NCBI RefSeq assembly: GCF_964251405.1
Contig: NZ_CAXUJR010000006.1
Coordinates: forward strand, 5,324 to 63,861
Source: an uncultured Methylobacterium sp.
GTDB taxonomy: Bacteria; Pseudomonadota; Alphaproteobacteria; Rhizobiales; Beijerinckiaceae
Direction of reading: 5' to 3'
Length of the DNA stretch: 58,538 nt
Shown one piece after another: positions 34,771 through 41,930 of the stretch. Each line of letters starts with the position of its first letter. The stretch's first letter is position 1. The notes beneath the pieces were generated by a model. That model was not told the DNA's origin. It worked only from the letters and a program-made list of their open reading frames with translations, and did not search any database. The translations under genes were made by a program, and so were the position numbers.

Positions 34771-34847
34771 GCCGCCGTAGCTCAGTTGGTTAGAGCACCA
34801 GATTGTGGATCTGGGGGTCCCCCGTTCGAGCCGGGGCGGTGGTACCA
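34771..34847 (+). tRNA. tRNA-His (GTG)
   Basis: Cloverleaf: acceptor GCCGCCG/CGGTGGT, D-arm, anticodon arm CCAGA-TTGTGGA-TCTGG, GTTCGAG T-loop, encoded ACCA end. Confidence 0.96.
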
Positions 34848-35116: not shown

Positions 35117-35141
35117 GCAACCTATGGCCAAGCCTGCCGTT
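35117..35141 (+). promoter_or_regulatory. Sigma-EcfG-type promoter candidate
   Basis: GCAAC-N16-CGTT (one mismatch to GGAAC), 100 nt upstream of the LOV kinase. Confidence 0.5.
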
Positions 35142-35240: not shown

Positions 35241-36350
35241 ATGGAACCGGCTGAAGCATGGCGCCTCACCGACAGGCTCATCAACGAACACGGCAAGGGC
35301 GACCCTTTTGCCGCCGCGGTGCGCGCGACCCGCATGGCGATGATCATCACCGACCCGCGTCAGGACGACAACCCGATCGCGTTCGTTAACGACGCGTTCT
35401 GCAGCCTGACGGGATACGACCGTGACGAGATCATGGGGCGCAACTGCCGTTTTCTTCAGGGGGCCGAGACCGACCGGGGCGCAGTGAAACTCCTGAGCGA
35501 GGCGATTCAGGCGCGCCGCGATATCGGCATCGACCTCTTGAACTATCGTAAGGACGGCACGGCCTTCTGGAACGCCCTCTATGTCAGCCCGGTCACCAAC
35601 GAAGCGGGCGAGCTGCTGTATTTCTTCGCCTCGCAGCTCGACATCACTGACCGGGTCGACGCGCTGCAGCGGACGCAGAGCGAGAAGGACCGCTTCGAAC
35701 GTGAAGTTGCGGCGCGAACCCGCGATCTTACCGACGCGCTGGCCGCCAAGACGATGCTGGTCCACGAGGTCGATCACAGGGTCAAGAACAACCTGCAGAT
35801 GATCTCCTCGCTGCTGACGATGCAGACCCGCAACATCACCGATCCGGATGCCAAGGCGTCGATGGAGCAGATGCTTCTCCGCGTCGAAGCCCTGGGGACG
35901 GTCCACCGGCGCCTCTACCAGTCGAACAACGTCGAGCGGTTCGACGTGGCCGAGTTCGCCCGTGACCTCGCCACCGACCTCATCCGCGGCTCCGGCCGGT
36001 CCGACATCCACCTGCATCTCGATCTGGAGGCGGTCGAGATCCCGGTGGAGAAGGCGCCGCCCGTCGCGCTGATGATGAACGAGCTGCTGACCAACGCGCT
36101 CAAGCACGCCTTCGCCGACGAGCGGCCGGGCAGGCTCTCCGTTACGGTCCGCCCGGATGCGACCCATTTCGGGATCAAGATCGTGGACGACGGTGTCGGG
36201 ATGCCGGGCCAGCCGCTCGGTAAGAATTCCTTCGGCAAGCGCCTCATCGAAACGCTGGCCCGCCAGCTCAACGCCAGTATCGGCTGGCAGCCCGCCGATC
36301 CCGGAACCCGGATCGACATCCGTCTGCCGCGCGAGTTGGCCGACACCTAG
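35241..36350 (+). CDS. LOV-domain blue-light histidine kinase (HisKA_2/HWE-related)
   Basis: [17 protein letters not shown] with photoactive Cys, [11 protein letters not shown]; [28 protein letters not shown]. Confidence 0.93.
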
Positions 36351-36358
36351 GAGCAACC

Positions 36359-36844
36359 GTGAATGACGAGCCACTCAGAGTCCTGATCGTCGAAGACGAA
36401 GCCGTGCTCGTCATGCAGCTCGAAATGCTGGTGGAAGACAGGGGGCACGTCGTCGTCGGTACGGCCTATTCGGCATCCGAAGCGATCGCCCTGGCGCGCG
36501 CGACGCGGCCCGACCTCGCCTTCGTGGACCTGCAGCTCCAGGGCCGTTCCTCCGGGATCGATGTCGCCCGCGCCATCCGCGACATGGAGGGTGTCACGAT
36601 CGTGTTCGTGACCGCCAATGCCGCGGCGCTCGCGGATGACTTCGAGGGCGGCGCAGCCGTGATCGCCAAGCCGTTTTCCGTAGCGCTCATGAGGAACAGC
36701 CTGCCGTATATCGAACAATGCGTTCGGCAGCCGCCACCGAAGTTGGATCTGCCGCTCGGGATGCGTCTGGCTCCGGCCTACCTCGCGCACTTGGAGAGCC
36801 TACGGGCCGGAACCACCATCAGCGCCGTGACGAAGGCCCTTTGA
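36359..36844 (+). CDS. Response regulator receiver protein, partner of the LOV kinase
   Basis: IVEDE, FVDLQL, FVTAN, AKPF; 8 nt after the kinase stop. Confidence 0.88.
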   Translation: MNDEPLRVLIVEDEAVLVMQLEMLVEDRGHVVVGTAYSASEAIALARATRPDLAFVDLQLQGRSSGIDVARAIRDMEGVTIVFVTANAAALADDFEGGAAVIAKPFSVALMRNSLPYIEQCVRQPPPKLDLPLGMRLAPAYLAHLESLRAGTTISAVTKAL

Positions 36845-37153
36845 GGTCCATCGCCGAGGTATTCTGCTATCTCCCAAATCCTCGCCGTGATGTCCGGGTC
36901 GAAACGGGCGTGCGAGGCTTCAAACCTCGTCCTGTCACGGCGTCTGCGGTCTGAAGGTGCCGGACGCGGCCAGCGGGCGATCCCCGGTCCAAGCCAAAAG
37001 GCGTCGCAGTTGCGCCTTCCACCCGCGTCCCATGGTGCCACGGCTTTGCCACAAGCGCAGCCGTGTTGTCGCCACAACTGTCAACGCATGTGTTGCCGAG
37101 GCAGCGCGGGTCGCGCGGAATCAGGGAGCGTCGTGTCGCAGATGCAAGGTCGC

Positions 37154-38293
37154 ATGATTGGATCGTCGCGGACTCCTCTCGGCCCTCGTTACGTGGCTCC
37201 TCCGGGAGCTGCCGTTCCATCTCACGACGTCATCAGCTTCGGGACACGCGTCGGCCGTGACCACGGCAGCAGGCCCGCACTGGTCCGGTCGCTCGTCGCG
37301 ATGTCGATCCTGGCCGCCGGCCTCGGCGCGCTGGTCGCCCGCGGTGGCGACCTGAGTGCCGTCGGTATCGGCGCGGCCGTGGCGTCCTCGTCGGCAGCGA
37401 TGCCCCTGCCAATGCCCAAACCCCGCATCCAGCTCGTCGCTTCGGCGATCCTGCCCGCAGCGCCCACCGTCCTGACTTCGTCCTCGGCCTTCGCGCCGAT
37501 CCACGATCTCGACACCGAGATCGGCTCGAACGCCGTCGATCGGGTCTCCTACGACTACCTGCTGACCGAGAGCGCGATCGGCGACCCCAACGACATCCTC
37601 GAGTTCGGGCCGATGAAGATCCGTCGCCACCTCGTGCAGAAGATCGTCCGCGCCGCGCAGGCCGTGCAGACCGATCCGGTGCTGCTAATGGCCGTGGCCG
37701 ACAAGGAGTCGAGCTTCATCACCGAGGTTCAGGCCAAGACCTCCTCGGCCACCGGGCTCTACCAGTTCATCGAGCGGACCTGGCTCGGTGTGATTCGCGA
37801 TTTCGGCCCAAAATACGGCCTGACCCAGGATGCTGCCCTCGTTGTGTCGGGCGAGAACGGCCGCCCGAACGTCGCCGACCCGGCCGAGCGCAGCCGTATC
37901 CTCGAGCTGCGCCGCGACCCCTACCTGTCGGCCTTGATGGCCGGCGAGATGCTCAAGCGGGACGCCTCGCGGATCGCCCTGAGGATCGGACGCGACCTCA
38001 CCCTCGGCGAAGTCTACCTCGCGCACTTCCTCGGCGTCGACGACGCGGAGGATTTCCTGGCCAAGGTCGCCGACAAGCCCAAGGCCGCCGCGGCGCAGAT
38101 GCTGCCCGGACCGGCGCGGGCCAACCGTTCGATCTTCTTCGCCGCCCAGCGGGGTCGCAAGAAGGCGGCGAGCCTCTCGGTGGCCGAGGTCCACGGGAAA
38201 TTCGAGTCCATGATGAGCACCCGCGGCGCCCGCTACCGCGACGTCCGTTCCATGGCGGGCATCCTCGCCTACGCCGACGCCACCGTGGAGTGA
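37154..38293 (+). CDS. Lytic transglycosylase SLT-like protein
   Basis: KESSF, SSATGLYQFIERTWL, YLAHFLG; N-terminal TM; start uncertain. Confidence 0.82.
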   Translation: MIGSSRTPLGPRYVAPPGAAVPSHDVISFGTRVGRDHGSRPALVRSLVAMSILAAGLGALVARGGDLSAVGIGAAVASSSAAMPLPMPKPRIQLVASAILPAAPTVLTSSSAFAPIHDLDTEIGSNAVDRVSYDYLLTESAIGDPNDILEFGPMKIRRHLVQKIVRAAQAVQTDPVLLMAVADKESSFITEVQAKTSSATGLYQFIERTWLGVIRDFGPKYGLTQDAALVVSGENGRPNVADPAERSRILELRRDPYLSALMAGEMLKRDASRIALRIGRDLTLGEVYLAHFLGVDDAEDFLAKVADKPKAAAAQMLPGPARANRSIFFAAQRGRKKAASLSVAEVHGKFESMMSTRGARYRDVRSMAGILAYADATVE

Positions 38294-38433
38294 CTCCGAA
38301 AGCTCCCCGTTCGACCTCGCCCCGGACGGCCACCTTTGCAAATTTTCGCAACCGATGACCGGCTGCGGGCTTTAACATAGGTGTCGCCGCATCCGCGCGG
38401 ATCGCGATACGGACAGCTTTGAGGAGATCCGAC

Positions 38434-39120
38434 TTGGTCGATCCGAAAGACGAGTCGTCAGGTCCGACGTCGCGCGGGGCCAATCTTCTGTCATTTCCGC
38501 GGGCCAAGTCTTCCCACGACGCGTCCTCTGCGGCCCAGCCGGCCTGCGCAACGGACAATAGCCTCAACCCCGGTCTTTCGCTCGACAGGATCGGTCAGGC
38601 GCTGGCCGCCTTCTACGATGACCTGGTCGCCGAGGGCGTACCCGAGCATCTCGCCGGTTTGGTTCGCCAAGTGAAGCCGGCCGAGGTCGAGCCGGTCACT
38701 CAGCCAGATGAGGGCATCGTCGTAACCGCGCCCGGCAAGTCGGGCCGGCTCGCCATCATCGTCGAAGACGAAGCGGCGACGCGGACCCTGGCGGAATCGC
38801 TTTTCGAGGCCACCGAACTTGAGGCGATCGGCTGCGATAGCGCGGAGGGCGCCCTCGACATCCTGAGGGAACGGGGCACCGACGTTGCCCTCGTCTTCGC
38901 CGATATCCGCCTCGCCGGGGAGATGGACGGCCTGCAACTCGCCAACGCCGTGGCGACCCTGTGGCCGCGCACCCGGATGGTCGTCACCTCGGGCCAGTCG
39001 CCCGTCAAACCCTCGGACCTGCCCAATCAGGTCGTGTTCATTCCCAAGCCCTGGCGGCCGGCGGCGGTTCTTGTCGAAGCTGGTTTGGCGACAAGCGAAA
39101 CGCCACCCATCGTTCCCTAG
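38434..39120 (+). CDS. Response regulator with N-terminal NepR-like anti-sigma segment
   Basis: RIGQALAAFYDDLVAEGVPEHLAGLVRQV then receiver (IVEDE, FADIRL, VVTSG, PKPW); GAGGAG RBS 7 nt before TTG 38434. Confidence 0.78.
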   Translation: MVDPKDESSGPTSRGANLLSFPRAKSSHDASSAAQPACATDNSLNPGLSLDRIGQALAAFYDDLVAEGVPEHLAGLVRQVKPAEVEPVTQPDEGIVVTAPGKSGRLAIIVEDEAATRTLAESLFEATELEAIGCDSAEGALDILRERGTDVALVFADIRLAGEMDGLQLANAVATLWPRTRMVVTSGQSPVKPSDLPNQVVFIPKPWRPAAVLVEAGLATSETPPIVP

Positions 39121-39197
39121 ACCTTGAGTGGTGCCGCGACCACGGCCCGCCTTCGGCTCCCGGTGCACCTGCCGATTCAATCCTTGCGCGAATGCGC

Positions 39198-39223
39198 GGA
39201 ACGGGGGAGCGACGAGCGTCGTT
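39198..39223 (+). promoter_or_regulatory. Sigma-EcfG-type promoter
   Basis: GGAAC-N17-CGTT about 105 nt upstream of the transglutaminase pair. Confidence 0.68.
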
Positions 39224-39329
39224 TGCAGCGCACGATCTCTGAGGGTTGGCCGATTCGCGGCCATCGTGGGCTCACCTTTTGCATCACCCCGACGAAGAGG
39301 CCGCGCATGGGCGCGGCGGAGCCGTTTCT

Positions 39330-40250
39330 GTGCCGATTCTGTCCGTCCGTCACGTCACCACCTACCGTTACCGGCAGCCCGTGGGATTCGGCGAGCACCG
39401 CATCATGTTCCGCCCGCGCGACAGCTACGACCAGCGCCTGATCGCCGCGACCCTGGCAATCACACCCGAGCCGCAGGGCCTGCGCTGGCTGCACGATGTC
39501 TTCGGAAATTGCGTCGCCGTGGCGAGCTTCACGGGTCGTGCCTCGGTCCTGCGCTTCGAATGCGCGATCACCCTCGACCACACCCCGGAATCCGTTCCCG
39601 ACTTTGCCCTCGCCCCGAACGCCGCCTTCTATCCGTTCGGCTACGGCGTCGACGACATGCCCGACCTCGGCCGGTCGATCGAGCGCCAGCACCCCGATCC
39701 GCGCAACGAGGTCGATGCCTGGGCACGCAGTTTCGTGCCTCCGGAGGGGCGGATCGCGACGCAAGACCTGCTCGCCGACATGACCCGCAGCGTGCGCCGG
39801 AACTTCGCCTACCTCGCCCGGTCCGAGAAAGGCGTGCAGGACCCGGTGACGACTCTGAGATTGAAGCGTGGAAGCTGCCGCGACTTCGCCGTCCTGATGA
39901 TCGAGGCGGTGAGGGCTCTGGGCATGGCCGCCCGTTTCGTGTCGGGCTACCTCTACAACCCGCGCGGCGACCGCGACCGCCATGTCGGAGGCGGCTCCAC
40001 CCATGCCTGGGTCCAGGTCTATCTCCCCGGCGCCGGTTGGGTCGAATTCGATCCGACCAACGGCATCGTCGGCAACCGCGACCTGATCCGAGTGGCCGTG
40101 GCCCGCGATCCGCGCCAGGCGGTGCCGCTGCACGGCTCGTTCTTCGGTTTTCCCGCCGACGATCTCGGAATGACCGTGGAGGTCGACGTGGTCGAGGTCG
40201 AGGCGCCCGCGCAGGAGACGCGGGTGCCGGATCCGATGGTGTCGCGTTGA
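39330..40250 (+). CDS. Transglutaminase-like protein (N-terminal domain + core)
   Basis: VRHVTTYRY, DVFGN, triad GSCRDFA / THAW / FDPTN, VAVARD; GTG start 39330. Confidence 0.9.
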   Translation: MPILSVRHVTTYRYRQPVGFGEHRIMFRPRDSYDQRLIAATLAITPEPQGLRWLHDVFGNCVAVASFTGRASVLRFECAITLDHTPESVPDFALAPNAAFYPFGYGVDDMPDLGRSIERQHPDPRNEVDAWARSFVPPEGRIATQDLLADMTRSVRRNFAYLARSEKGVQDPVTTLRLKRGSCRDFAVLMIEAVRALGMAARFVSGYLYNPRGDRDRHVGGGSTHAWVQVYLPGAGWVEFDPTNGIVGNRDLIRVAVARDPRQAVPLHGSFFGFPADDLGMTVEVDVVEVEAPAQETRVPDPMVSR

Positions 40251-40310
40251 CGGGGCGCTCCCGCCTTCGTCGTCGCGAATAGCTTTGTCTTTCAGCTACA
40301 GGTGAGCGCG

Positions 40311-41117
40311 ATGAAGATCAGGACTGGGTTCGACATTGCCTTCGAATCGGTTCAGCCGACCCCGATGATCCTCGAGCTCAGCGTGCATCCCACGCGGATG
40401 CCCGATCTCCTCACCCCGCACGAGATCCGGTTCGATCCGCCGATCCCCTGGCAGGAATATCGCGACGTCTACGACAACGTCTGCACCCGCATCGTCACTC
40501 CGCCGGGCCTGCTCACGATGTCCGCCGACTTCACCATCCAGGATTCGGGGCTGCCCGATGTCTATGCTCCGAGCGCCCAGCAGATCGCCGTACAGGACCT
40601 GCCCCAGGACGTGCTCATCTACCTCCTCGGTAGCCGCTACTGCGATACCGACAAGCTTTCCGAGACCGCCTGGTCCCTGTTCGGCGGTACGCCGATGGGC
40701 TGGGCCAGGGTGCAGGCGATCGTCGATTACGTCCACGACCGCATCCGCTTCGACTACCTCTGCGCAGACGCGACCCGTACGGCCTGGGACGGTTTCATGC
40801 AGCGCCAGGGCGTCTGCCGCGACTTCGCCCATCTCGCGGTTGCCTTCTGCCGGTGCATGAACATTCCGGCGCGCTACTGCACAGGCTATCTCGGCGATAT
40901 CGGCGTCCCGCGCGTCCCCGATCCCATGGATTTCTCGGCCTGGTTCGAGGTCTATCTCGATGGCGGCTGGTACACCTTCGACGCCCGTCACAACATGCCC
41001 AGGATCGGGCGCATCCTGATGGCCCGGGGACGCGATGCCACGGACGTCGCGATCACCACGAATTTCGGCTACGCCCACCTCGCGCGCTTCGAGGTCCATA
41101 CCGACGAGGTGTTCTGA
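40311..41117 (+). CDS. Transglutaminase-like protein
   Basis: GSRYCDTD, GVCRDFAHL, IPARYCTGYLGD, DFSAWFEVY, FDARHN, GRDATDV. Confidence 0.9.
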   Translation: MKIRTGFDIAFESVQPTPMILELSVHPTRMPDLLTPHEIRFDPPIPWQEYRDVYDNVCTRIVTPPGLLTMSADFTIQDSGLPDVYAPSAQQIAVQDLPQDVLIYLLGSRYCDTDKLSETAWSLFGGTPMGWARVQAIVDYVHDRIRFDYLCADATRTAWDGFMQRQGVCRDFAHLAVAFCRCMNIPARYCTGYLGDIGVPRVPDPMDFSAWFEVYLDGGWYTFDARHNMPRIGRILMARGRDATDVAITTNFGYAHLARFEVHTDEVF

Positions 41118-41264: not shown

Positions 41265-41930
41265 ATGAAGACCTTAGCTACTGCCCTGGCGGGCGTTCTC
41301 GGTGTCTGTGTTCTTGCATGCGGTCCGGTCGCCGCCGCTCCCTACGATCCTTTCGAGGTCAATTCAGGTGAGGAGTATTACTCCGATCCGGCCTACGACC
41401 CCTACGGCTCCCCCCGTGGCGCCGATCTCGGATATCGGAACTACACGCAGGGAACTGGGCCTCAGGCGGCACCTCAGGCCCAGGTCGCACCGATCCCCCG
41501 CGAGATCGTTTCGTTTAACGCTGGCTACAAGCCCGGCACCATGGTTGTCTCCACGGCCGAACGGCGCCTCTACCTGGTGCTGCCGGGCGGTGAGGCGATC
41601 CGCTACGGTGTCGGCGTCGGCCGTCCCGGCTTTACCTGGTCCGGAACCAAGAGCGTGACCGCCAAGCGTGAATGGCCGTCATGGACTCCCCCGGCGGCGA
41701 TGCTCGCCCGACGTCCCGATCTGCCGCGCTACATGGCCGGCGGTGTCGAGAATCCGCTCGGCGCCCGTGCCCTCTACATCGGCAATACCGAGTACCGCAT
41801 CCACGGCTCGAACGAGCCGGACACGATCGGTCAGGCTGTGTCCTCAGGCTGCATCCGCATGACCAACGAGGACGTCACCGACCTCTATGATCGCGTCAAG
41901 GTCGGCGCCAAGGTCGTCGTCCTGAACTGA
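41265..41930 (+). CDS. L,D-transpeptidase (ErfK/YkuD family)
   Basis: Signal peptide; RYGVGVGR, WPSWTPP, NPLGARALY, IHGSN...SSGCIRM. Confidence 0.93.
   Translation: MKTLATALAGVLGVCVLACGPVAAAPYDPFEVNSGEEYYSDPAYDPYGSPRGADLGYRNYTQGTGPQAAPQAQVAPIPREIVSFNAGYKPGTMVVSTAERRLYLVLPGGEAIRYGVGVGRPGFTWSGTKSVTAKREWPSWTPPAAMLARRPDLPRYMAGGVENPLGARALYIGNTEYRIHGSNEPDTIGQAVSSGCIRMTNEDVTDLYDRVKVGAKVVVLN

Follow-up and report, generated by a model that had tools for sequence, protein, structure and literature searches.

A NepR-like segment fused to a receiver domain, conserved across Methylobacterium and probably part of the EcfG regulon

The window, by which we mean the whole stretch of 58,538 nucleotides analysed here, comes from an uncultured Methylobacterium sp. 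and carries an ORF that opens with a TTG codon at 38434 and ends with its last stop base at 39120 (Table 1). The encoded protein has a NepR-like segment ahead of a receiver domain, as the earlier note had claimed; the peptide quoted there corresponds to residues 52–80. A contig from an independent run covers positions 38200–39300 with 50 substitutions and zero indels, and, because it spans the region without an indel, the fusion is not an artefact of assembly. Indeed, both an assembly artefact and a chance extension of the ORF are ruled out by this contig together with the conservation, the pN/pS ratios and the GTDB loci described below. The ORF sits between an SLT-domain gene and the transglutaminase-like and YkuD genes, and this site is constant over the 80 loci compared. 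The canonical nepR of this genome lies next to phyR on a different contig (C31), and the fusion gene is, therefore, an extra component.

Table 1. Coordinates of the features of the locus, numbered from the first position of the window
Feature	Coordinates	Strand	Description
Fusion ORF	38434..39120	+	228 aa; NepR-like segment, linker and receiver; inferred ortholog of M. extorquens AM1 META1_2524
Shine-Dalgarno-like GAGGAG	38422..38427	+	7 nt ahead of the TTG start; from sequence
Variable N-terminal arm, residues 1–49	38434..38580	+	Conservation 0.19 (residues 1–43); pLDDT 39–51
NepR-like segment, predicted helix-linker-helix, residues 50–80	38581..38673	+	Pfam PF18557, conservation, pN/pS, model
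Variable linker, residues 81–103	38674..38742	+	Conservation 0.32; pLDDT <50 over 81–98
Receiver domain, residues 104–221	38743..39096	+	Pfam PF00072; fold search
Putative EcfG-type promoter	38348..38373	+	-35 GCAAC, 17 nt, -10 CTTT; position, conservation across loci
SLT-domain gene (synteny marker)	36887..38293	+	Pfam SLT; upstream in 80/80 loci
YkuD L,D-transpeptidase-family gene (synteny marker)	41265..41930	+	Pfam YkuD; downstream in 62/80 loci

The N-terminal arm is likely, on the predicted structure, to be disordered, as is the N-terminal flank of NepR. In 42 of the 80 loci (L006–L085), a TTG or GTG start codon accompanied by a ribosome-binding motif is found 22–53 codons ahead of the segment. 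Several database entries begin at the segment itself (176 aa for protein P0008 and 173 aa for the AM1 entry), and the arm may be missing from annotations.

The protein search returned 250 homologues from 1789 candidates, and among the 120 listed, every named organism is a Methylobacterium. A scan of GTDB, seeded by receiver-only patterns, confirmed 170 loci, the best 80 of which are used for the counts given here: 77 are titled Methylobacterium or Methylorubrum, and the NepR-like motif is in frame with the receiver in all of them. Surveyed in this way, the combination of a NepR-like segment with a receiver, noted originally for a single gene, is genus-wide in Methylobacterium. Moreover, 19 of 23 other genomes sampled from the genus contain a full-length match (E<1e-84); of the remaining four, three have a degenerate form with a pseudo-receiver (one of them cut by a contig end), and in one there is a fused paralogue (L089). 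Among 301 genomes sampled from the whole order, full-length matches occurred only in the genus, and the fusion was, therefore, not found outside the family in the genomes searched. In the 80-protein alignment (A1), column conservation reaches 0.84 in the segment and 0.80 in the receiver, as against the low values of the arm and linker that flank the segment (Table 1). A crude pairwise estimate of pN/pS gives 0.22 in the segment and 0.30 in the receiver at comparable pS, which indicates that the constraint acts on the protein and that the segment is under purifying selection.

The Pfam NepR model (PF18557) matches residues 51–79 with E=6e-4 and 19.8 bits, under its gathering cut-off of 25.7 bits. 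The match is not due to chance, since 79 of the 80 homologues in the alignment also match at E<=0.01, and precomputed assignments to both PF18557 and PF00072 exist for 26 of the 120 listed homologues. Some relatives exceed the cut-off (28.9 bits for locus L092, 31.5 bits for protein P0179 and 35.7–39.4 bits for the split forms described below), and an hhalign comparison of a profile of 11 fused and split segments with the genome's own NepR gives a probability of 96.6 and E=6.9e-10. Judged by sequence, then, the segment is homologous to NepR, and the kinship first read from its motif holds at the level of the family. The fusion protein itself lies outside NepR proper: it scores below the Pfam cut-off and is not a stand-alone protein.

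The segment retains I53, G54, L57, Y61, E67, V69, P70 and L76. In comparison with the canonical NepR proteins of 21 phyR loci, the hydrophobic face is kept, while the replacements R>A58, P>G68 and F>L73, plus A74, are fixed family-wide and could, on sequence, signal a different partner. L57 and Y61, which are invariant across the alignment, correspond to L32 and Y36 of Sphingomonas melonis NepR (2LFW chain-B numbering), and A58 to its R33; the substitutions L32A and Y36A lowered function in that protein and R33A did not (PMC6599016). Thus, both residues needed for function are retained, and the lost arginine is one that is dispensable in S. melonis. Three of the four residues of the Caulobacter crescentus NepR linker E48–P51, which is needed for both partners (PMC4551977), are also retained. 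The AlphaFold2 model has a helix at residues 50–66, a linker and a second helix at 74–78, with pLDDT of about 55–67. The best 60 of 118 PDB sequence matches to the full alignment include receivers and PhyR and no NepR chain, and a fold search with the model gave receivers, with no NepR chain among the matches listed.

The receiver matches Pfam Response_reg (PF00072) over residues 108–189 with E=5.5e-9, above the cut-off. The earlier note had described it as intact, and E111, D112, the phospho-acceptor D157, T185 and K205–P206 are all present; across the 80 loci, the acidic pocket, phospho-Asp, Thr/Ser and Lys are found without exception. AlphaFold2 predicts a receiver fold at residues 106–221, mostly with pLDDT >90, and its fold matches are receivers. 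The domain is without the FATGUY motif, the family consensus for β4 being VVTSG. The NCBIfam PhyR model aligns with the receiver only (residues 107–212; E=0.0018, 18 bits against a cut-off of 240), and no Pfam sigma-domain match was obtained for the fusion protein.

It is established that the opening of PhyR is controlled by its receiver. The fusion protein resembles PhyR in having an interaction module of the stress switch N-terminal to a receiver; unlike PhyR, which carries a sigma mimic, it carries an anti-sigma-like part. The proposed architecture, a counterpart of PhyR, is therefore borne out. With NepR itself (3T0Y chain B and 2LFW chain B), the protein shares a core, predicted to be helix-linker-helix, with the positions I/G/L/Y/E/V/P/L, the variable N-terminal arm and an EcfG-type promoter motif; it differs in its attached receiver, its sub-cut-off score and the fixed changes noted above. 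Moreover, NepR is a small stand-alone protein encoded at the phyR/ecfG locus, whereas the fusion protein has 228 residues and is encoded away from phyR. A further parallel is provided by the Methylobacterium EcfG proteins, whose NepR-like N-terminal extension (found here on contig C159) is the same module joined to a component of the stress switch in the same genus, although the partner is a sigma factor rather than a receiver; in PMC4814048, the function of this extension is stated to be unknown.

The GCAAC-N17-CTTT motif ahead of the ORF had been described as weak. Within the window alone, it is indeed not above chance (2 found versus 0.88 expected), and it differs at two positions from the M. 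extorquens EcfG consensus, GAAC-N16,17-C/GGTT, as given in PMC4814048; it is, however, conserved in place, as G[GC]AAC-N17-C[GT]TT occurs upstream of the segment in 66 of 81 loci (GCAAC in every case), compared with 0.4% in a Markov control, and the other 15 have GCAAC-N16/17-nnTT. We also looked for a sigma-70 promoter and found none.

The microarray supplement of PMC4814048 gives the AM1 gene order as pantothenate kinase, an opposite-strand chemoreceptor, a hypothetical gene and META1_2524, followed by an ErfK/YkuD gene, an opposite-strand exported protein and a PAS kinase. There, META1_2524 is a receiver gene of 522 bp, and the hypothetical gene upstream ends 192 nt before it. The ATG-started ORF is likewise 522 bp in 13 of 14 Methylorubrum-type loci, the 14th having an equal span without the ATG, and in locus L049, the stop codon of the SLT gene lies at -192, and genes for a chemoreceptor and for a PRK-family kinase are found further upstream. 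From this synteny and the exact agreement in length, rather than from the AM1 sequence, we infer that META1_2524 is the ortholog. In the data of PMC4814048, its transcript is changed -12.7-fold in the sextuple ecfG mutant (p=0.0029) and is entered in the authors' regulon sheet, whereas in the ecfG1 mutant (-5.0, p=0.0088) and the double mutant (-5.9, p=0.0077) the change misses the authors' threshold of p<0.005; the value for the ecfG2 mutant is +1.1, and the gene upstream changes by only -1.6-fold in the sextuple mutant. Taken together, the conserved motif and the microarray response of the inferred ortholog make it likely that the fusion gene belongs to the EcfG regulon and is transcribed by σEcfG under stress, although the dependence of META1_2524 could be indirect. 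EcfG control, thus, stands on firmer ground than the earlier note had held.

Variants of the architecture were surveyed at 18 loci chosen for long or strong matches, of which six are fused, seven encode only the receiver and five are split, a NepR-like ORF being followed directly by a receiver gene from the same subfamily. Three of the five split-form peptides exceed the Pfam NepR cut-off (39.4, 35.7 and 35.9 bits) and retain the canonical Arg and Pro, and two are weak. Among 40 further receiver loci, scanned with a profile that included relatives of one of the positives, an upstream NepR-like ORF was found in five, all of them among the 19 loci from other genera of the family; none of the 9 loci from Methylobacterium and none of the 12 from other families has one. 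When 50%-identity representatives were searched exhaustively, the best 150 hits included 16 full-length fused clusters, and Pfam NepR matches 10 of these at E<=0.5. A second type of departure concerns the receiver: 20 of 37 long hits examined retain the segment without the Lys-Pro-Trp motif, and 14 that were aligned have Gly in place of the phospho-Asp. These pseudo-receiver proteins are named M. aquaticum, M. tarhaniae, M. currus, M. variabile and others, and the one such locus checked (L092) is syntenic. Since this phospho-dead clade keeps the segment, and NepR-like and receiver genes also exist as split pairs, the segment appears to have a role of its own. By the same token, phosphorylation is dispensable in some lineages, and, as the M. 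aquaticum group has the segment without phospho-Asp and Lys, phosphorylation gating is not universal.

Single cases add to this diversity: a metagenomic protein (P0137) is a split-form read-through on a single contig, P0174 combines the N-terminal motif found in one type of split peptide with a Methylobacterium-like segment, P0160, named Enterovirga, is fused with an altered acidic pocket, and P0142, named Microvirga, is a split-type peptide. Loci L089, L093 and L094 and proteins P0172, P0173 and P0176 represent a second fused family, paralogous to the first, in which the NepR-like segment has diverged further; GAAAC-N16-CATT occurs upstream of L089 and L093. A receiver tree of 35 rows, from which L094 and the pseudo-receivers were left out, supports the orthologue clade (99/99) and does not resolve the links between fused, split and stand-alone forms, and hence the number of fusion events.

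The reading that we tentatively prefer, with confidence a little short of even, is that the fusion protein acts as a feedback brake that is induced by stress, binds PhyR and takes an input through its receiver. During stress, σEcfG would transcribe the fusion gene; the segment would then bind not EcfG but the sigma-like domain of activated PhyR; PhyR captured in this way would leave true NepR free to re-capture EcfG, and the general stress response would be damped; the receiver would add a kinase input, in that phosphorylation may control access to the segment and/or drain phosphoryl groups from the stress kinases. We infer the binding to PhyR, the negative sign and the role of the receiver; the likely EcfG control is what such feedback would be expected to show, and supports the scheme.

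The best functional analogues are META2p0735 and META1p1275 of M. extorquens, which bind PhyR and not EcfG, the former being stress-induced and inhibitory (PMC4814048), and NepR2 of S. melonis, which behaves like them (PMC6599016). Like the fusion protein, they have a NepR-like core and stand apart from the main nepR role, and META2p0735 and NepR2 are EcfG-induced, as we suppose the fusion gene to be; the fusion family differs in being conserved and syntenic across a genus. In the relevant passages of the same two papers, wherever a secondary NepR-like protein of Methylobacterium or S. melonis had any binding partner, that partner was PhyR, and EcfG binding is shown for none of these proteins. 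The earlier note had put forward two mechanisms, a PhyR-titrating decoy and a phosphorylation-gated anti-sigma factor; this precedent favours the decoy, and, by analogy, the fusion protein most likely works like the secondary NepR-type PhyR antagonists. The precedent is not uniform, as META1p2700, which is EcfG-regulated, bound neither PhyR nor EcfG, and overproduction of META1p1275 was without effect despite its binding to PhyR (PMC4814048).

A complex was also predicted for the sigma-like domain of this genome's PhyR with residues 40–86 of the fusion protein, alongside three controls. The model scores 0.43, as against 0.10 for the best control, with at least 86% of the contacts agreeing between runs and a partner pLDDT of at least 62. 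The mark that it passes was also passed by 116 out of 157 solved pairs and by 2 out of 215 mismatched ones; the passes at scores of 0.60 or less, however, comprise only 18 of the 157 solved pairs, along with both mismatches. Moreover, the pass may reflect memory of solved complexes, as PhyR–NepR structures exist (3T0Y and 2LFW). The predicted complex, thus, lends weak support to PhyR binding and moves its probability little. In the monomer model, the segment is not packed confidently on the receiver, so that a structural basis for gating is absent so far.

In its fullest form, which we regard as rather doubtful, the protein would be a mirror image of PhyR, that is, a kinase-controlled anti-sigma mimic. 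If so, stress kinases would have two points of action, one on either side of the partner switch: they would open PhyR, the sigma mimic, and would independently arm or disarm the NepR mimic by which PhyR is reset; a nepR-like gene would have fused with an adjacent receiver gene, and the split, fused and phospho-dead stages would persist in the Beijerinckiaceae.

The working part might instead be the receiver, acting as a phosphate shuttle or sink for HWE/HisKA2 stress kinases, with the segment bringing it to PhyR or promoting PhyR phosphorylation; the net effect might then be positive or kinetic rather than one of titration. The receiver is, as described, intact at all 80 loci, its subfamily consists mostly of stand-alone single-domain receivers, many with EcfG-like motifs upstream, and NepR enhances PhyR phosphorylation in vitro (PMC4551977). 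We nevertheless consider this unlikely, since the segment is kept in the pseudo-receiver proteins, the split forms are separate polypeptides that need no covalent tether, and the FATGUY motif of known shuttles is missing. The single-domain proteins MrrA, SdrG, Mext_0407, LovR and CstR are similar in being receivers that are linked to the stress response and have no DNA-binding output; the first three differ in being of the FATGUY type with no extra domain (PMC5964349), and no NepR-like segment is described for any of the five in the literature passages searched. CstR (Mext_1965) is encoded by 381 nt, compared with the 522 bp of the ortholog, and identity with Mext_0407 or CstR is ruled out by motif and length.

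Of similarly low probability, in our view, is a reading in which the partner of the segment is neither PhyR nor EcfG and the segment has drifted to something else: its own receiver, a second copy of itself in an oligomer or an unrelated target. The protein would then be a response regulator of the EcfG regulon whose output is a pair of helices derived from NepR. The small residues A58, G68 and A74, unlike those of canonical NepR, would fit such drift, META1p2700 provides a precedent for a stress-regulated NepR-like protein with neither PhyR nor EcfG binding detected (PMC4814048), and the recurrence of NepR-like ORFs beside one receiver subfamily could reflect direct mutual binding. Against it stand the retained hydrophobic face and function-needed residues, the monomer model, which does not dock the segment on the receiver, and the split-form peptides that pass the Pfam cut-off with canonical Arg and Pro.

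NepR serves both of its partners through one surface, and a gated anti-sigma factor for an EcfG paralogue, such as one with no anti-sigma factor found so far, would release or engage its target on receiver phosphorylation; the window's genome has at least two EcfG-like genes. We judge this quite improbable: while, in PMC4814048, neither NepR nor any of its three homologues was seen to interact with four of the six AM1 EcfG proteins, the authors invoke an unidentified PhyR-dependent control of EcfG2 and the fusion protein was not among the proteins tested, EcfG binding is shown there for none of the three homologues, nor for S. melonis NepR2 in PMC6599016, Methylobacterium EcfG proteins carry a NepR-like extension of their own, with only truncated EcfG1 binding NepR (in vitro and by two-hybrid), and no ecfG adjoins the fusion gene in the window, its conserved neighbours being SLT and YkuD.

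The PhyR–NepR–EcfG switch was discovered in M. extorquens and, to our knowledge, little is known of its damping and shut-off. The fusion is real and conserved, and its architecture is apparently undescribed: full-text literature searches returned no NepR–receiver fusion in titles and abstract openings (a passing mention in print is possible), and the tag META1_2524 is absent from the main texts that they covered. The list of NepR paralogues in PMC4814048, whose main text does not contain the word 'receiver', comprises stand-alone proteins only; at 65–96 codons (198, 291 and 201 bp), their genes have no room for a receiver, and identity of the fusion protein with one of them is ruled out. Some members already bear automatic database labels, either 'response regulator' or 'NepR family anti-sigma factor'. 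Two loose ends in M. extorquens, the four EcfG proteins with no known anti-sigma factor and the unexplained control of EcfG2 by PhyR (PMC4814048), have in the fusion protein a specific candidate that was missing from the list in the AM1 study of NepR homologues. Additionally, the split, fused and pseudo-receiver forms offer a natural series for the origin of a new response-regulator output domain.

Other NepR-like ORFs were encountered elsewhere. In the window's genome, one at locus L002 (G000:C11:35631-36667) passes the Pfam cut-off and lies directly upstream of, and in a different frame from, an EcfG-like gene with no NepR-like extension, as a split counterpart of the fused EcfG on C159; a weak small ORF at L005 (G000:C19:45751-45999; Pfam E=0.72) was missed by our custom profile. 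In another genome of the genus, a NepR-like ORF (L101:2975-3544, + strand; E=2.7e-4) lies downstream of a different single-domain receiver; the matching receiver in the window's genome (C1) is followed by an N gap.

Upstream of the SLT gene in the window, a PAS/HisKA2 kinase gene (35241–36350, + strand), with an HRVKN box and a GRNCRFLQG stretch that we take to be of LOV type, precedes a single-domain receiver gene (the pair spans 35241–36844). A tRNA-His gene (34771–34847) lies nearby, and GCAAC-N16-CGTT is found at 35117–35141. The kinase is present in 0 of the 80 orthologous loci; its candidacy as the cognate kinase is, therefore, unsupported, and it is likely to be a recent insertion beside the tRNA. 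Downstream of the fusion gene, a consensus EcfG-type motif, GGAAC-N17-CGTT (39198–39223, + strand), lies just ahead of two tandem transglutaminase-like genes (39246–40250 and 40302–41117), which are present in 54 and 61 of the 80 loci, respectively. The likely AM1 counterpart of the YkuD gene that follows them is META1_2527, which changes -77-fold in the sextuple ecfG mutant (PMC4814048), and the locus, therefore, has the appearance of a stress-regulon gene cluster.
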